NCBI GenBank assembly: GCA_000826855.1
Contig: JTLS01000080.1
Span: 1 to 33,914, forward strand
Source: Basidioascus undulatus
Lineage: Eukaryota
Reading direction: 5' to 3'
DNA length: 33,914 nt
Notes under the pieces: generated by a model
Told to the model about the DNA's origin: nothing
Database searches by the model: none
Seen by the model: the letters and a program-made list of their open reading frames with translations, nothing else
Program-made: the position numbers and the translations under genes
Shown: positions 75-30,900 of the stretch, in pieces
Layout: the number at the start of each line of letters is the position of its first letter
How positions within the stretch are numbered: the stretch's first letter is position 1

Positions 75-1352
75 CCAAGACAAGAAGGACAAGTCGCGCG
101 CGCCCATCACCGCCAAGCTCGTCGCCAACATGATCCAAAAAGCGGGGTGCGACCACGTCATTGTGCGTTGGCGGTGACCCATTTCCATCCTTGGGAGGTG
201 GGGAGGAGAGGAGCGAGAAGCTGATTGTCTGGGGGCGGCGGCGGCAGACGATGGACCTCCACGCCAGCCAGATCCAGGGCTTCTTTGACGTGCCTGTCGA
301 CAAGTGCGTTGCCTTCCCTTATCCACACTCCAGGAAATACTCTGACCTGGAAATCTGAACTGCAGCGTCAGTGCTTCGGCATTTGATTGTGGGCGCAGGG
401 AGGCGCGGGGTGCAGCGTACTGATGCGGGAGCGATGTTGGGACACTCTGCAGTTGTACGCCGAACCGTCAACGCTGCAGTTCGTCCGGGAAAACATCGAC
501 GTCAGCCAAGTCGTCATTGTCTCCCCCGACGCTGGCGGTGCGAAACGGTGGGTTGTAACTCCCGTCCCGTGCCATCCACCTCGCGATTGACCATGGGAGG
601 TGATTCGTTCGCGCAGGGCGACCTCCATCGCCGACAAGCTCAACGTGGACTTTGCGCTCTTCCATAAGGAGCGCAAGAAGGCGAACGAAGTTTCGCGCAT
701 GGTCCTCGTCGGCTCCGTCACCGGGAAAATCGCGATCCTCGTAGATGACATGGCGGACACGTGCGGGACGCTCGGCCTCGCCGCCTCCCACCTCGTCGAG
801 GCTGGCGCGAAGAAGGTGTACGCCATGGTCACCCACGGCATCCTCACTGGCCCCGCGCTCAAGGTCATCTCTGAGAGCGGGCTCGAGAAGCTTGTTGTCA
901 CCAACACCCTGCCCCAGGAGGAGAACCGCAGGCAGTGCGCAAAACTCGAGGAGATTGACATCAGCCATGTCCTCGCCGAGACGATCAGGAGAAGCCACTA
1001 TGGCGAGAGCGTTAGCGTGCGTGGCGGGTTCTTCCTCGTCTCTCTCCTTCTTCCTTCTCTTCCGCTGTGTTTGACTGACGTGGGTAGTCTTGCCTTCTAC
1101 ATCACAGGTCCTCTTTGACAACCTGCCATGTGAGTCTCCGCTCAACTCCCAATCCCTCGCACGCAACATCGTACTGACCCTCCCTCCCCTCTCGCAGAGT
1201 ACGCCCCACCCCGCCCCTCCCTACCCACATTCCTCTCCCCAGACTAACCGCCTTTCCCCGTCTCCTCCCTCCCCCCGCGCAGCGCCCACACCCTCTCGAC
1301 CCTCACGCCGCAGCTGACAGGCCTCGCGAACGGGACCGGCGGGGGCGCATAG
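75..1352 (+). CDS. PRS: Ribose-phosphate pyrophosphokinase (PRPP synthetase), 5'-partial; exons 75-162, 248-303, 366, 453-547, 617-1016, 1108-1129, 1198, 1283-1352
   Basis: Spliced translation gives [66 protein letters not shown] (PRPP-binding loop), THGIL and [18 protein letters not shown]. All introns are GT-AG. Confidence 0.96.
366..366 (+). other. Putative single-nucleotide exon (C) in PRS
   Basis: Context ctgcAG|C|GTcagt. Introns 304-365 (branch CTGAC 342-346) and 367-452 (branch CTGAT 420-424). It completes AA+C = Asn of VDNLY; without it the frame breaks. Confidence 0.82.
1198..1198 (+). other. Putative second single-nucleotide exon (A) in PRS
   Basis: Context tcgcAG|A|GTacgc. Introns 1130-1197 (CTGAC 1174-1178) and 1199-1282 (CTAAC 1244-1248, pyrimidine tract, CAG). 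T+A+C = Tyr gives LFDNLPY, open to TAG at 1350-1352. Confidence 0.68.
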
Positions 1353-14698: not shown

Positions 14699-17600
14699 AT
14701 GGACAAGATCAAGGGCGGCTCCGCGCTCAAGCGGGCGACGTCCTTTGCGCTTCAGTCCAACAACAAGGACACTGGACAGAGCAGCATGAACAACGCGACC
14801 AACATGCGCGGTTTGACGCAGGTGCGCGTTGTTGGCCCTGGGGCAGGCGAGGAGCGAGGTCTGGAGCTGACAGCGAGCTCGGGCGCACCACCAGTACATC
14901 GCCGACCTGCGAGCGTGTCGCGTGCGGGAGCTAGAGGAGAAGCGGATCAATAAGGAGATGGCACATATCCGGCAGCGGTTCAAGGGTGAGTGGGCCGCAC
15001 TCGCATGGTGAGATGGAGGGCAGGCTGACCGTTCGAACGGCGACAGAGGGCAACATGACGGGTTACCAGAAACGGAAATACGTCGCCAAGCTGCTGTTCA
15101 CCTACATCCTCGGCTACAAGGTCGACATTGGCCACATGGAGGCCGTGAACCTCATCTCGTCCACAAAATACTCGGAGAAGCAGATGGTCTGTTCCCCCTT
15201 TCCCCGATGACCATCTTCCCTTTGACTCAGCTGCTCATCGAGCTTGTTGCACTGCAGGGGTACCTCGCCCTTACGCTTCTTCTCCACGAAAACTCGGACC
15301 TCACGCGTCTCGTCATCAACTCGATCCGCAAGGACCTCGAGGACTTGAACGAGGTCAACAACTGCCTCGCGCTTCACGCGATCGCGAACCTCGGCGGTGC
15401 TGAGATGGCCGAGGCGCTGGGGGAGGACGTGCATCGGGCGCTGATATCTCCGTGAGTTAATCATGTTTACTTGGCGGTCAGGGTGGGGTGGGAGGAATGC
15501 TGGTGGAGAGCTGCGAGGAGCAGGCGTTGGAGATGTAGAAGTGGACCGGGCACAGGCGGAGAGGCAGCGCGGTGGCCCTGTGATCCGACTGGCAGTACTC
15601 ACGCTGACACTTCTTCCCGCCCCATCAGAACATCCTCGACCTTCGTCAAAAAAAAGGCGGCTCTCACCCTCCTCCGACTCTACCGCAAGCACCCGGACGT
15701 CATCCCCGCTGCCGAGTGGGCCCTGCGAATCGTCTCGGTCATGGACGACGACGACCTCGTAAGCGAGATCTTTTCCGTTCCAGTGCCAAGCTTCGGTGCC
15801 TGACGGGGGCGCCGTCGGTCTGGCAGGGGGTCGCGCTCGCGACGACTAGCCTCGTCATGACGCTCGCTCAAGATCACCTGGAGGCGTTCTCGGTCTGCTA
15901 CGCCAAGGCTGTCAACCGGCTTTCCAAGGTATGCGGACATTGGGTGCGAGACTGAAAGGAGACGTCAGACTAAAAGCATGCACGCCTCGACAGCTCGTCA
16001 TCGACCGCGAATTTTCGGCGGACTACATCTACTACAAGGTCCCCATACCTTGGCTGCAAGTCAAGCTCCTCCGCCTATTGCAGTACTACCCTCCGTCCGG
16101 TCAGTCTTCTGCAACCTTCTCGCACCCACTGTTGCTTTCTTTCTGACATCACGCGATGCACCCAGAGGACCCGGCTGTCCGGCTCGCAATCCACAACGTC
16201 CTGCACGAGATCCTCGAGGGCGCGCAAGATACGCCGAAGAACGTGCAGCACGCGAATGCACAGAACGCGGTCCTCTTCGAGGCGATCAACCTCGCGATCC
16301 ACCTCGACACCGAGTCGTCGATTGTTCACGCGGCCGCCGTCCTCCTCGGCAAGTTCATCCTCTCCAAGGAGACGAACGTGCGCTACCTCGGCCTCGACAC
16401 GATGGCGCACCTCGCCGCGTGCTCGGACAGCCTCGAGCCGATCAAGCGCCACCAGGACACGATCATCCTCAGCCTGCGCGACAAGGACATCAGCGTCCGC
16501 AGGCGCGGCCTCGACTTGCTCTACAGCATGTGCGACGTCACGAACGCGAAGGTCATCGTCGGCGAGCTCCTCAGGTACCTGTCCGTCGCGGACTACGGTC
16601 TACGCGAGGAGATGGTGCTCAAGATCGCCATCCTGACGGAGAAGTTTGCGACGGAGGTGAGCGCCTAGGGTTCTCGATGGGGATTAGCGGGGAGGCGCGC
16701 ATGCTGATGGCGACGGGCGATGACGCAGTACCAATGGTATGTCGACACCATCCTCCAGCTCATCCAATCCGCGGGCGAGCATGTCGGCGACGAGGTGTGG
16801 TACCGCGTCGTCCAGGTAAACTGCTTACGCATGCATGCAGTTGGAACACCGTCCGGCTGACACTCACATCTCACTACAGATCGTCACCAACACCGAGGAT
16901 CTGCAGCAGTACGCGGCGCAGACGGTGTACGAGCACCTGCGAAACCCGACGTGCCCGGAAAACCTTGTCAAGGTTGGCGGTAAGTCGACTTGGTCTGCCA
17001 TCTCGACTCTAACATGCGCAGTGGCTGATTGAGATGCGCAACAGGCTACATCCTGGGCGAATACGGGCACCTAATCGCGGACAACCCCGGCTGCAGCCCG
17101 ATCGAGCAGTTCCACGTGCTGCACTCCAAGTCCAACTTCAGCTCCGCGCAGACGCGCGCGCTCCTCCTCTCCACGTACCTCAAGTGGGTCAACCTCTTCC
17201 CCGAGATCAAGCCCCAGCTCGTCAGTGTCTTCGACCGCTACAGGCACGTCCTCGACGCCGAGCTCCAGCAGCGCGCATCCGAGTACCTCGCCATCTCAAC
17301 CCGCGACGACGACGACGCGCTCCTCCAGACGCTCTGCGAGGAGATGCCGCCGTTCCCCGAGCGCGAGAGCGCGCTGCTCAACCGCTTGCACCGCAAGCAC
17401 GGGGATACACAGGACCAGCGCACGTGGGTCATCGGCGGGAAGGAGGCGAACCGGGATCGGGAGCTCGCGCGGCTCAAGAGCCTCAAAAAGGCGGAGGGCG
17501 GCATTTTGGGCGGCGGGGTAGCGGCGATGGCGACGGGGACGGGGGCGGCGGCGGCAGCTGTTCCCCCGCGTGCCGCCGTCAACGGGAACGGCAACGTGCC

Positions 17601-18652
17601 GGTGGACGATCTCCTCGGCTCGGGCGACATCATGTCTTCCCTCAGCGGACTCGACCTCTCCTCACCGCCCGCTCAACCTCTCGCATCCCCCCCGCCGAAC
17701 CTCTTCCCCGAACCGATCACCACCTCGACTTCCCCTCCCTCTTCCTCCCTCTCCGCCACCGCGCCCATCCGCAACGCCGCCGTGGACAGTGCGTACGATC
17801 GCCTGTGCTACACGTACGAGGGCGTCCTGTACGAGTCGGACTTCCTCTCCATCTCGCTCAAGTCGGAGTACCACGGCCAGCTCGGTCGGCTCGCGCTCGT
17901 CTTCCGCAATAAGATCAGCTCCGCGGCGTTTACGAGCTTCTCGGCGACGATCGACGTGCCCCAAGCGAGCGCGCTCGCCGTCACGTTCCCGCAGATGACG
18001 AGCAGCACGATCGACGCCGGCGGCTCGCTCCAGCAGCCCGTGCACGTCGAGTGCAAGGACATCTTTGACGAGACGCCCATCCTGCGCGTCTCGTACCTCG
18101 CCGGCTCGCACCAGACGCTGGCGCTGCGGCTGCCCATCATCTTGAGCAAGTTCATCGAGCCTGTACAGTACGTTTCCATTTCCGCCCTTCTCGTCTATCG
18201 CACTTTGCTGACAGTGAGTGTGACGTCCGAATAGACTTGGCCAGAGCGACTTCTTCGAGCGATGGCGACAGATCGGCGGCCCTCCGCGCGAGGCGCAAGC
18301 CATCTTCCCGATTGCGCTCGACGCGGCGGGCGAGGTCGACGTTGCCGCCCACGGGCGCATCGTCTCTGGCCACCGGCTCGGGCTGCTTGACGGCATCGAC
18401 CCGAACCCGGTCAACAACGTCGGCGCGGGCGTGCTGCACACGAGCGCGGCGGGCAAGGTCGGGTGCCTGTTGCGGCTGGAGCCTAACAAGGACGCCAAGG
18501 TGCGCTTCGTTGCGATAAATTTCCTTTTCTACGAGAGGCATGTAACTGACGTTGGGGTGCGAGGACAGCTGTGTCGCTTGACGGTTCGCACGACCAACGA
18601 GGACGTTTCCTCGCGGCTGCTCCAACTCCTGCAACGACTGCTCACTGCATAG
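14699..18652 (+). CDS. APL3: AP-2 adaptor complex subunit alpha (alpha-adaptin), multi-exon
   Basis: [150 protein letters not shown]; ear domain [11 protein letters not shown] and [10 protein letters not shown]. Intron phases are consistent. Confidence 0.97.
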
Positions 18653-27900: not shown

Positions 27901-30900
27901 CCATTGACGACCTTGAAGTCGGCCGAGTTGTCGATCGTGATTGCGCGGCGCTGAGCGGCGGTCGCGTTGATGTCGAGACGGAGGTTGGTCGTGATCTCCG
28001 CAAGGTTGGGGAGGCGGTCCATGCCACCGTTGAGGTCGGCCCAGATCGGCTCGACTTGGGTGATGTCGAAGAGCAGCGGGTGCATCAGGCCGAGGATGTT
28101 GAATGCCATCTCCTTCGCCGAGAAGGTGCGGACGCCACACTTCTCGACGCCCTCCGCGACGATGTTGATCGCGCTCATGAGACCGGTGCCGCGAGTCCAA
28201 CTAAAAAGACAAGGTCCGCATCAGGATCGTTTCGAAAAGAAGTGTGAAAAGAGAAAGGACGCACCCGATGACCGCGCCGGCAAGGCAGAGATACTCGCCC
28301 CAGCTCTCGGCGCTCCAACGGTTGAAGAGTGTCTCGAGCGAGATCTTCGACTCGGAGTAGAGACCGTCCGAGCCGAAGAGACCGTGGTTGGGCGAGAGCG
28401 GGAGGACGACCTGCGTCGGGCGCGTGACGAAGTTGCGCGCGGCCTTCTTGGTCTTGACGGCGCCGAGCAGGCGGAGCAGGTTGACCAACATGATGCGGTG
28501 GGCGAGCTCGGACTTGTCGTCGATGCCGTCGATCTCGCGCCCGTTCTCGGGGAGGGCGGCGAAGGGGAGGATGTAGTCGAGGTCCATGCCGAGCGTGGAG
28601 TAGATGTACTCGACGAGCGCCTCGACGTCCTGCTTCGAGCCCTGGTTGAACGGTACGACGGTGAGGGAAGAGTCACGGCTACCGCACTCCTGGTAGACGG
28701 CCTGGTAGTACTCGACCGTGGCGCGGCTGTAGCGCGAGGTCGTGATGACGACGCGCGCGCCACCGGCCAGGAGGCCCTTCAGGATCTCGACGCCGATCGA
28801 GCCCTTGCCGACACCCGTGAGGAGCGCATTCTTCTGGCGGAAGGTCGTGCCGGACGTTGCGATCTCGGTGAGGATGTCGAGGTCTGCAGGGAAGAACACG
28901 TAAGGTCAGCTGAAAAGATCATGAAGAGCGAATCAGCATAAAACACTTACAGATCGACGTGAGCTTGGAGCTGTACTGCCAGTTGTTACCGAGCTTGCGC
29001 TTCAGGTGGAGGAACGGCAGCTTGTCCTCGGCGACCAGGGCAGACTCTGCGACAGTGGGGCGGAGGAACTGCGAGGACGAGCGGCGGCTGCGAGGGCCGG
29101 GCGCGGAGCGGCGCAGCTCAGCGGGACGGCCCAGCGAGCGCACGACTTCGCCGTAGAGGGACTGAGGAGGAAACGGTCAGCGCCTCGTCGTTTCATGGAA
29201 GAGCAAAGAAGACTCACCTTGATCGCAGCCTTGTGGCCACGGGAGACGTTCGGCTGCGCCTTGATGAGGCGCCAGAGCTTCGCGACGTCGGCCTGGACCT
29301 TGTCGAGGTTGACGCTGGCGCCGGTGATCTTTCCACCGGTAGCCATCTCCTTGACTGTAAACGGAAAGCACGTAAGTCATCTTCTGCAAACGTAGATATG
29401 CGTCGGAACGGACCGTAAGCCTCGAGCTTGCGAACCGACTCGCGGTTGACCTCCGAGTACTCGAGGTCGCCACGAGCGGTGACCTCGGTCTTAGGCGCAG
29501 TCGGGAAGGTGACTGCCAAGTCAATGTCAGCGTCGCACATCCAAGTAAACAAACCAACAAAAGCTGCTTACCATCCTTATACTTGGGCGGCTCGCCCGAT
29601 GCGACTGCTTCGCGGACGTTCTCGAGCAGCTGCTCGCCGAGCTCCTTCGCGAGCTTGTAGGTGGGGCCCAGCTCGACGTTGACGGTGGAGATGTAGTACT
29701 CCATGTAGTCGACGAGCGCGGGGTCGGCACGCGAAATGATGTTCAGGCAGCGTGAGGTGACTGTGCGAACAGAGTCAGCACGTCCAAGACAGGGATGAAG
29801 AGTTCAGGACGAAGACTCACTGTCGCGGTCAACGGTCGTGAGACGGCCGAAGATGATGTCGTAGAACATCGACAGCGCGTCCTGCATAAGAAACGAATCA
29901 GTGCTGTAGATAGGTGCAAAGGTCGGCGGGCAACGCACCTGACGAGCCCAGTTCCAGCTCGAGTCGAAGGTGCGCGCCTTGAGCGGCTCGAACACTGCAG
30001 GACGTATGGTCAGGATCGGAGAGATGAAGACGAACAGGAAGGAAAACGCACCAGGCATGACACCCTCAATGTAAGTGTCGCCGTGCTCCTTGGCGATGGC
30101 GTCCAGACGCTCCTGGAGAGCGGCCGAGTTGGCCTTCTCCTCGTCGTGGAGACGGTGGCCGGCACGGGCGTCGCGCTGCAGCAGAAAGGGAGTCAGTTGC
30201 CGAGCGAGGAGAATTAAGAGATAATCGAATGCGCACCTTGAGGTAGCGCAGGTAAAGGTCGACCTGCTGCGAGGCGAACTCGTTCTGCGCCTCCTGGAAC
30301 TTCTCGAGCTCCTCGCTGCTGATGACAGCGCCGCCGCCGCCGCCACCGCCGCCGCCGCCGCCAGCCGCGCCGCCAGCCGAGAGCGAGATGCCGGTCTGCT
30401 GAGCGTAAGCGGCGACGACAGAGTCGAGCCAGGCCTTCGCCTCGGGCTCGGAGCCGAGACGCTTGGGCGGCTCCATGGTGACACCGAGGAGGAGCGCGGC
30501 GTCCGAGCGGCCGGGACCGAGACCCCAATTCTTCGAAAGGTAGGCCTTGATGGCGGAGAGGTTGAAGCCACCGGGCATCTTGCCGCCGACGAGACGTGAG
30601 ACGAGACCGCTGGTGTGCTTACCGAGCGCGCCGGAGTAGCCGACCGAGAGCGCAGCGCCCAGCTCGTCGAGAGGAAGCTCCTCGCCCTTCTCAGGAGCGC
30701 TGAAGGGAAAAGAACGTCAGTCGAAGCTTCTTTAGATTGAATGGAGACGGACGCAAGACGTACGAGCTAAACTCGGCCTGGAGGTCACCGAGGATCTCAT
30801 TCTGCAGGGTCGACTTGCCGCCGACGAGGTCCTTGATCGCCTTGGAGAGCGGGACCTCGTCAACGCGCTTCTTGAGCTTCTGCGCGATGATGATGCGAAG

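Follow-up and report, generated by a model that had tools for sequence, protein, structure and literature searches.

The DNA studied here raises the question of how a gene for a housekeeping enzyme keeps its reading frame when a single base is lacking between two of its conserved exons. The stretch analysed, called the window below, is 33,914 nt long (positions 1 to 33,914 of contig JTLS01000080.1 of Basidioascus undulatus, assembly GCA_000826855.1), and it carries the 3' two-thirds of a gene for class I PRPP synthetase (PRS; ribose-phosphate diphosphokinase, EC 2.7.6.1). The PRS exons span positions 75–1129 on the + strand, and the 5' part of the gene lies beyond the window edge. Very probably, as judged from sequence comparison, a single nucleotide, C366, is an exon of its own that completes a conserved Asn codon, with both flanking introns being removed. 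The features of the gene are as follows.

75..162, + strand: PRS coding exon, placed by reading frame and part of the model that includes C366; the preceding acceptor CAG ends at 74
163..247, + strand: intron of 85 nt, GTGCGT...CAG, with CTGAT about 22 nt before the acceptor
248..303, + strand: PRS exon ending in AA, phase 2 (GAC = 299–301, AA = 302–303)
304..365, + strand: predicted upstream mini-intron of 62 nt, with donor GTGCGT (304–309), CTGAC at 342–346 and acceptor CTGCAG ending at 365
366..366, + strand: putative one-nucleotide exon, C, which would complete AA+C, the Asn codon of D-N-L-Y, at its third position
367..452, + strand: predicted downstream mini-intron of 86 nt, with donor GTCAGT (367–372), CTGAT at 420–424 and acceptor CTGCAG ending at 452
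453..547, + strand: PRS exon with phase-0 start TTG TAC GCC GAA, ending in CG
548..616, + strand: intron of 69 nt, GTGGGT...CAG, ends read from the sequence
617..1016, + strand: large PRS exon of 133 codons, with the Pribosyltran and Pribosyl_synth domains
1017..1107, + strand: intron of 91 nt, GTGCGT...CAG, ends read from the sequence
1108..1129, + strand: the last part of the CDS that is clearly recognizable as PRS exon (VLFDNLP and a further T), assigned by reading

The assignment of the gene is based on domain and protein searches. ORF 591–1118 contains PF14572 (Pribosyl_synth, 3.2e-36) and PF00156 (Pribosyltran, 1.9e-09), and homologues have PF13793 as well. In the protein database search, the large exon shares 83–84% identity with the PRS proteins of Kwoniella, Cryptococcus and Cutaneotrichosporon, which points to a tremellomycete-like basidiomycete; no PRS protein of the same species was found in this database, the best identity being 84% among longer proteins and 83% among those of nearly the same length. 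An antisense gene was also considered and was rejected, because the minus-strand ORFs across 3–467 are the mere reverse of the PRS exons.

An initial annotation of this DNA had pointed out that one exon ends in GAC AA and the next starts with TTG TAC, and that joining them directly is one base short. Our coordinates confirm this: the conserved flanking exons end in phase 2 at 303 and start in phase 0 at 453, with 304 as the first intron base. We built four models of the junction by coordinate-based exon joining, translated them and aligned them to the PRS of C. deneoformans (P0022). When 303 is joined to 453 across a single 149-nt intron, the CDS is one base short and out of frame, and a stop occurs 121 codons into the modelled part. 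When C366 is included, the CDS of 639 nt is open, its frame reads ...FFDVPVDNLYAEP..., and the alignment to P0022 covers 213 columns with 177 identities (83%) and 0 gaps. Human PRPS2 (7yk1) aligns ungapped through FFDIPVDNLYAEP, so that PRS tolerates neither a missing nor an additional residue at this point, and the motif FFDxPVDNLYAEP is common to the human enzyme and the window PRS with C366. The proposal that AA+C, read as Asn, restores the P-V-D-N-L-Y of class I enzymes is thus borne out by ungapped alignments to both the Cryptococcus and the human protein. The conserved ungapped segment QIQGFFDxPVDNLYAEP was obtained only when C366 was included, and a predicted one-base exon is the only model that would yield the conserved ungapped D-N-L-Y. 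Because skipping of the base leads to a frameshift and a premature stop, inclusion of C366 would be obligatory for a functional enzyme.

The division of the 149-nt gap that had been proposed also holds by coordinates. CAG|C366|GTCAGT separates it into a 62-nt and an 86-nt intron, both of which have their own donor, branch-like motif and acceptor. CTGAC precedes the first acceptor by 20 nt and CTGAT the second by 29 nt, and the two mini-introns resemble the other introns of the gene (69–91 nt) in size and look. When the gap was shuffled 2000 times at the mononucleotide level, 2.35% of the shuffles held any YAG-Y-donor with both flanks of at least 35 nt, a rate that is suggestive for the window alone, and it is the comparison with relatives that decides. 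The gap holds another AG-C-GT, absent from the initial annotation, at 414–418 (CAG|C|GTACTG, base C416). We have also examined other partitions of the gap. On reading, nested introns, a type known as stwintrons, were rejected because both introns are whole and lie side by side with no overlap, and longer micro-exons formed by other AG/GT pairs in 304–452 (4, 7, 34 and 70 nt) were rejected for being out of phase, for containing a stop or for requiring a 17-nt intron.

For the comparison at the DNA level, metagenome contigs were scanned with the 133-residue PRS exon, and 80 loci were obtained. At the D-N-L junction, 45 of the 80 have GAYAA|GT ... AG|YTN TAY, with the same one-base gap as in the window; 24 have no intron, being short cDNA-like contigs or intronless lineages; four Tremella-like loci (L004, L007, L008 and L024) have a single phase-0 intron after AAT; two loci of an unplaced outgroup (L068 and L069) have a single phase-2 intron ending AG|T; and the junction region is absent from five. 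The 45 loci with the one-base gap represent 36 distinct sequences, which together with the window give 37 distinct intervening sequences. The initial annotation had suggested a search of orthologous PRS loci for a conserved AG-(C/T)-GT, and it is present throughout: one central YAG-Y-donor with both flanks of at least 35 nt occurs in 37 of the 37 sequences when the sixth donor base is left free, and under a strict donor pattern exactly one YAG-Y-GT (or GCAAGT) occurs in 36. A version with a purine as the single base was found in none of the 37. The mean chance of a YAG-Y-donor in shuffles is 0.7% per sequence, and the 37 sequences share descent and are not 37 independent trials.

Twenty of the distinct sequences have C as the single base and 17 have T, which is a wobble pattern since both encode Asn, and the close relatives L059 and L061 differ in this way (T and C, respectively). 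The second donors are mostly GTAAGT or GTGAGT; the distinct sequences include one GCAAGT, a donor present in loci L010, L018 and L019. The upstream intron is 45–66 nt long in the relatives (median 58) and the downstream intron 45–191 nt (median 56), and YTNAY is located 8–45 nt before the acceptor in 35 of the 37 upstream and 30 of the 37 downstream introns. The intervening sequences form at least 14 groups that are less than 65% identical to each other; the remaining intron sequence has diverged freely while the YAG-Y-donor has not.

We then compared 177 proteins at the junction, with source classes and organism names assigned by hand from the search tables. Among the annotated genome proteins, 69 are aberrant, 35 read VDN-L and 17 do not contain the region, so that 69 of the 104 covering the junction are aberrant. 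The 33 unannotated contigs of up to 3.1 kb, which are intron-free with full-length ORFs and in this sense transcript-like, include no aberrant form; 29 read VDN-L, i.e., all of those covering the junction, and the region is absent from four. Unannotated contigs of longer or unknown length gave one aberrant protein (a read-through), 14 with VDN-L and six without the region, and two animal-labelled proteins, both with VDN-L, were set aside. Among the aberrant forms are loss of VDN, replacement of N by K, K followed by C, Y, W or F, and read-throughs. That the exon is missed by gene predictors, as had been supposed, thus agrees with what is registered for the relatives.

Four pairs of a transcript-like contig and an annotated protein are identical except at the junction: P0018 (374 contigs) has N and C. 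neoformans P0020 has KHCC; P0089 (113 contigs) has N and Postia placenta P0087 has K; P0102 has VDN and Leucocoprinus leucothites P0103 has RGYYS; and P0242 has VDN where Sporobolomyces roseus P0241 has nothing. No same-species pair of cDNA and genomic sequence was found by blastn among the 80 loci at 93% identity or above, and the nearest usable pairs of transcript and genomic sequences are L010 with P0120 and L063 with P0242. In the former, 298 of 299 exon-encoded residues match, and residue 128 (N) of P0120 is covered by no exon of L010, which has CAG|T|GCAAGT at this point. Four cDNA-like loci (L034, L041, L050 and L054), which group with agaricomycete proteins in a quick tree, read GAY-AAY-YTN. 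In four annotated proteins of Rhodotorula and Rhodosporidiobolus, '...VDNVR...' is the outcome of reading through Y+GTNCGN, and CAG|C|GTACG is what the related genomic loci L063 and L055 have at this point. Mature transcripts of the relatives would therefore contain the extra base, the transcript origin of the short Logan/JGI/ENA contigs being deduced from their length and uninterrupted ORFs rather than from library records.

On the basis of these comparisons, other readings of the gap can be weighed. A single 145-nt intron would result if the upstream exon were four bases longer and used the GT at 308–309 (GTTGCC) as its donor, giving PVD-K-C-LYAEP with one extra residue. This model is in frame without stops and scores 893 in the alignment, with one gap, against 910 for the model with C366, and an analogous K+C/Y/W/F solution has been adopted in several public annotations of other basidiomycetes. 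Nevertheless we consider it very unlikely, because GTTGCC has neither the +5 G nor the +6 T present at all other donors of this gene, and because the model gives up the conserved Asn, adds a residue to a segment in which fungal and human proteins align with no gap, and leaves the conserved internal YAG-Y-GT unexplained. Moreover, the K-x forms in relatives occur only in genome annotations, against the uniform N of the short intron-free contigs covering the junction; the K forms that can be paired with a transcript-like contig are only the KHCC of C. neoformans and the K of Postia, and both contigs read N. It is likewise very unlikely that the one-base exon is C416 instead of C366, with introns of 112 and 36 nt. 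The AG-C-GT needed for this does exist in the window, and the resulting mRNA and protein would be identical to those obtained with C366, but the second intron would be just 36 nt long, there is no +5 G in its donor GTACTG, and its sole CTGAT (420–424) overlaps this donor. The upstream intron, which is 45–66 nt in all 37 distinct sequences, is 62 nt with C366 and would be 112 nt with C416.

Two further readings regard the missing base as a defect. It might have been lost by an assembly or sequencing deletion from a gene with one ordinary intron of 149–150 nt, and single-base indels do occur in long-read assemblies. Neither the boundary 303/304 nor 452/453 is a homopolymer, however, and the same gap is found in the 45 loci of independent metagenome assemblies, all with an internal AG-Y-GT, while the many aberrant annotated proteins indicate that predictors meet it in numerous genomes. 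The phase gap together with the central AG-Y-GT in independent assemblies therefore makes a chance motif very unlikely, and we hold an assembly indel in the window to be extremely improbable. The probability of a decaying pseudogene with a real frame defect appears to be nearly negligible. Such a view could appeal to the 5' part of the gene lying outside the window and to the 3' end of the CDS not being cleanly placed; against it, all other exons seen are open, the identity of 83% to Cryptococcus PRS extends over 213 residues with no gaps, all PRS introns have intact signals, and the one-base 'defect' is the conserved state of the orthologues.

With C366 as the exon, removal of 304–365 and 367–452 would produce an mRNA reading GAC-AAC-TTG, and the enzyme would keep PVDNLYAEP. 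The comparative evidence suggests that the spliceosome of this organism uses C366. Recognition would probably proceed by intron definition, both introns being short and having full sets of signals, and the two introns would presumably be removed sequentially, since only one base separates the acceptor of the first from the donor of the second and simultaneous occupation of both sites is unlikely; either order would leave an ordinary intron for the second round. The original suggestion of an obligatory 1-nt exon in a housekeeping gene is thus supported by the reading frame and by the 37 comparative sequences, the splicing itself being deduced from them. A bolder and purely speculative addition is that PRPP synthesis might be switched by regulated skipping of the base, through unproductive splicing.

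The phylogenetic breadth of the arrangement was estimated from best protein hits and a quick, weakly supported tree, which allow only rough placement of the metagenome contigs. The best protein matches are Papiliotrema for L002 (94% identical), Leucocoprinus for L006 and L012 (95%), Cyathus for L015 (91%) and Sporobolomyces roseus (Pucciniomycotina, Microbotryomycetes) for L063 (99%), which places the one-base-exon arrangement, at the DNA level, in Tremellomycetes, Agaricomycetes and Microbotryomycetes. For Tilletia (Ustilaginomycotina), Mixia and Cystobasidium, aberrant protein annotations hint at the same state. In much or all of Basidiomycota the arrangement appears to be the ancestral state, and in some lineages it would have been simplified by loss of one flanking intron; the Tremella-like loci with GAYAAT|GT look like a precise loss of the upstream intron, with the single base fused to the preceding exon. 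We lean towards the view that the one-base exon of PRS was ancestral in Basidiomycota, with selection on one wobble base and secondary loss of either flanking intron. Such an ancestral exon would have been retained for hundreds of millions of years. If this is true, no other one-base exon known in fungi would be as deeply conserved, and the wrong PRS proteins in most annotated basidiomycete genomes would be accounted for.

The initial annotation had described exons of this kind as very rarely documented. This holds only in part, for examples have appeared in print from Arabidopsis APC11, from plant VPS55, from Fusarium CYP621A and, in 13 genes, from Coprinopsis cinerea, and we compare them here with the PRS case. 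In Arabidopsis APC11, a constitutive single-nucleotide exon lies between two GT-AG introns (Guo & Liu, 2015; PMC4674806); it keeps the frame of an essential gene, had been missed by annotation and was shown by GFP fusion and RT-PCR, the identity of the base was of no importance for splicing, and the authors favour intron definition and successive removal of the two introns (PMC4674806). The PRS case is alike in having a one-base exon between GT-AG introns that keeps the frame and escapes annotation. It differs in that APC11 is a plant gene with other intron sizes and is experimentally proven, while the case of PRS rests on comparison; moreover, unlike that of APC11, the PRS base is the wobble base of an Asn codon, which is itself conserved, and is C or T among species. 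The 1-nt microexons of APC11 and VPS55 are conserved in land plants and absent from reference annotations (Yu et al., 2022; PMC8831610). Strong GTRAGT donors follow the base in these genes, the VPS55 exon is also used alternatively, and some plant lineages have lost a 1-nt microexon by intron loss, the base joining a larger exon (PMC8831610). Such loss parallels the Tremella-like PRS loci with a single phase-0 intron after AAT. The plant microexons resemble that of PRS in being kept across a major clade, in the strong donors that follow the base and in escaping annotation; they differ in belonging to land plants and to other genes and, for VPS55, in an alternative use of which PRS gave no sign.

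Closer in kind is the one-nucleotide exon of Fusarium CYP621A, which was recognized from a phase mismatch in a conserved motif and a conserved AG-N-GT in orthologues, later backed by SRA reads (Nelson & Syed, 2026; PMC12940212), and is claimed by its authors to be the first in a fungal gene (PMC12940212). That exon and the one of PRS are both fungal and were deduced in the same way from a phase mismatch and AG-N-GT. The former is restricted to one ascomycete genus with 20–24 genes, in a P450 of unknown role, where it is always G, at the second position of a Gly codon (PMC12940212), whereas PRS is a housekeeping enzyme and its exon extends over at least Tremellomycetes, Agaricomycetes and Microbotryomycetes. 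A long-read annotation of Coprinopsis cinerea, also a basidiomycete, gives thirteen long-read-supported 1-nt exons as a count only (Cell Genomics, 2025; PMC12230235). The PRS orthologue of C. cinerea may be one of these thirteen, because an older model (P0084) lacks V-D-N at the junction; the text supplements of that paper (PMC12230235) yielded no mention of PRS. Likewise, no mention of a one-base exon was found in the relevant passages of two Cryptococcus genome papers, and none of a one-base exon of PRS in the literature searched. The PRS exon is accordingly a further case of a one-base exon and a deeply conserved one, distinguished by the housekeeping gene, the phylogenetic depth and the scale of misannotation.

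An exon of one base is the smallest possible exon, and the PRS case, conserved across a phylum, located in an essential gene of nucleotide metabolism and flanked by very short introns, can serve as a test bed for how intron-defined spliceosomes handle splice sites one base apart and in which order the introns are removed. For annotation, the consequence is that two-thirds of the annotated basidiomycete PRS proteins covering the junction (69 of 104) are wrong at a conserved motif, including that of Cryptococcus neoformans; Rhodotorula toruloides is among the models studied. A repair rule follows, namely that a central YAG-N-GT should be sought wherever conserved exons are one base out of phase. 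In addition, lineages in which the site holds just one intron, in phase 0 or in phase 2, illustrate how a one-base exon is lost.

Finally, we mention the donor GTCAGT, which has C at +3. Other donors are commoner in the relatives, GTCAGT being found once in the 37 sequences at each of the two sites, which is a point against C366; it is the first donor in locus L039. The same hexamer had been reported as a donor near 16100 of the window in APL3, and this holds by reading: GTCAGT at 16100–16105 follows an exon ending ...CCG TCC G and is plausibly a donor in an adaptin gene, the next ORF (16147–16668) matching Adaptin_N at 2.7e-34 and an alpha-adaptin C2 domain lying farther downstream.

The D-N-L junction of class I PRPP synthetase (PRS) was wrong in 69 of the 104 basidiomycete PRS proteins with public annotations among the homologous proteins P0002-P0289, and the wrong-junction models include not only those of Cryptococcus neoformans, C. 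deneoformans JEC21 and Coprinopsis cinerea but also those of Trametes versicolor, Postia placenta and Rhodotorula toruloides. One bird-labelled protein, P0276 (Spelaeornis/Elachura KPR2), differs from the Rhodotorula paludigena PRS in 12 of 323 columns and is probably a yeast contamination of the bird data set.

Among the related fungal loci from the metagenome scan, three Leucocoprinus-like loci (L010, L018 and L019) open the intron 3' of the one-base exon with GCAAGT, about 53 nt into the gap between the flanking exons, and this intron start makes it a GC-AG intron. Asn is nonetheless present in P0120, a near-identical protein from a transcript-like contig (judged by its length and open ORF). 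A single intron was found at the junction in four Tremella-like loci (L004, L007, L008 and L024), where it is in phase 0, 42-48 nt long and placed after GAYAAT, and in two unplaced outgroup loci (L068 and L069), where it is in phase 2 and ends AG/T. These single-intron loci look like states that arose when one of the two introns, upstream or downstream, was lost; as an alternative to such loss, the phase-2 state of L068 and L069 may be the ancestral one.

Reading of the B. undulatus gap sequence gave a second AG-C-GT:

414-418, TGCAG/C/GTACTG

The octamer TGCAGCGT is common to this site and that of C366, the proposed one-base exon. Taking the 414-418 site as the one-base exon would give an mRNA identical to that with C366, but the second intron would then be only 36 nt long and its donor poor.

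Where the PRS coding sequence ends at its 3' side is ambiguous (1108-1250); an acceptor at 1197 would place a TAG stop immediately after ...DNLP, and one at 1242 would add one more residue, Tyr, followed by TAA. Two features of this 3' region, the second found by eye, are as follows.

1108-1129, + strand, PRS exon ending in phase 1, at GTGAGT
1371-1440, just past the 3' side of the PRS gene, units resembling GGAGCTGGGAG in an imperfect tandem repeat

Two other coding regions were assigned in the window:

15700-18234, + strand, AP-2 alpha-adaptin-like gene with Adaptin_N and Alpha_adaptinC2 matches
29804-30766, - strand, ORF matching the fatty acid synthase type I helical domain (PF18314, 3.3e-19)

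In the former, Adaptin_N is matched by 16147-16668 and by 17029-18234, the latter segment also matching Alpha_adaptinC2. The initial annotation had claimed that GTCAGT serves as a donor in this adaptin gene near 16100, and this agrees with an intron whose donor GTCAGT lies at 16100-16105.
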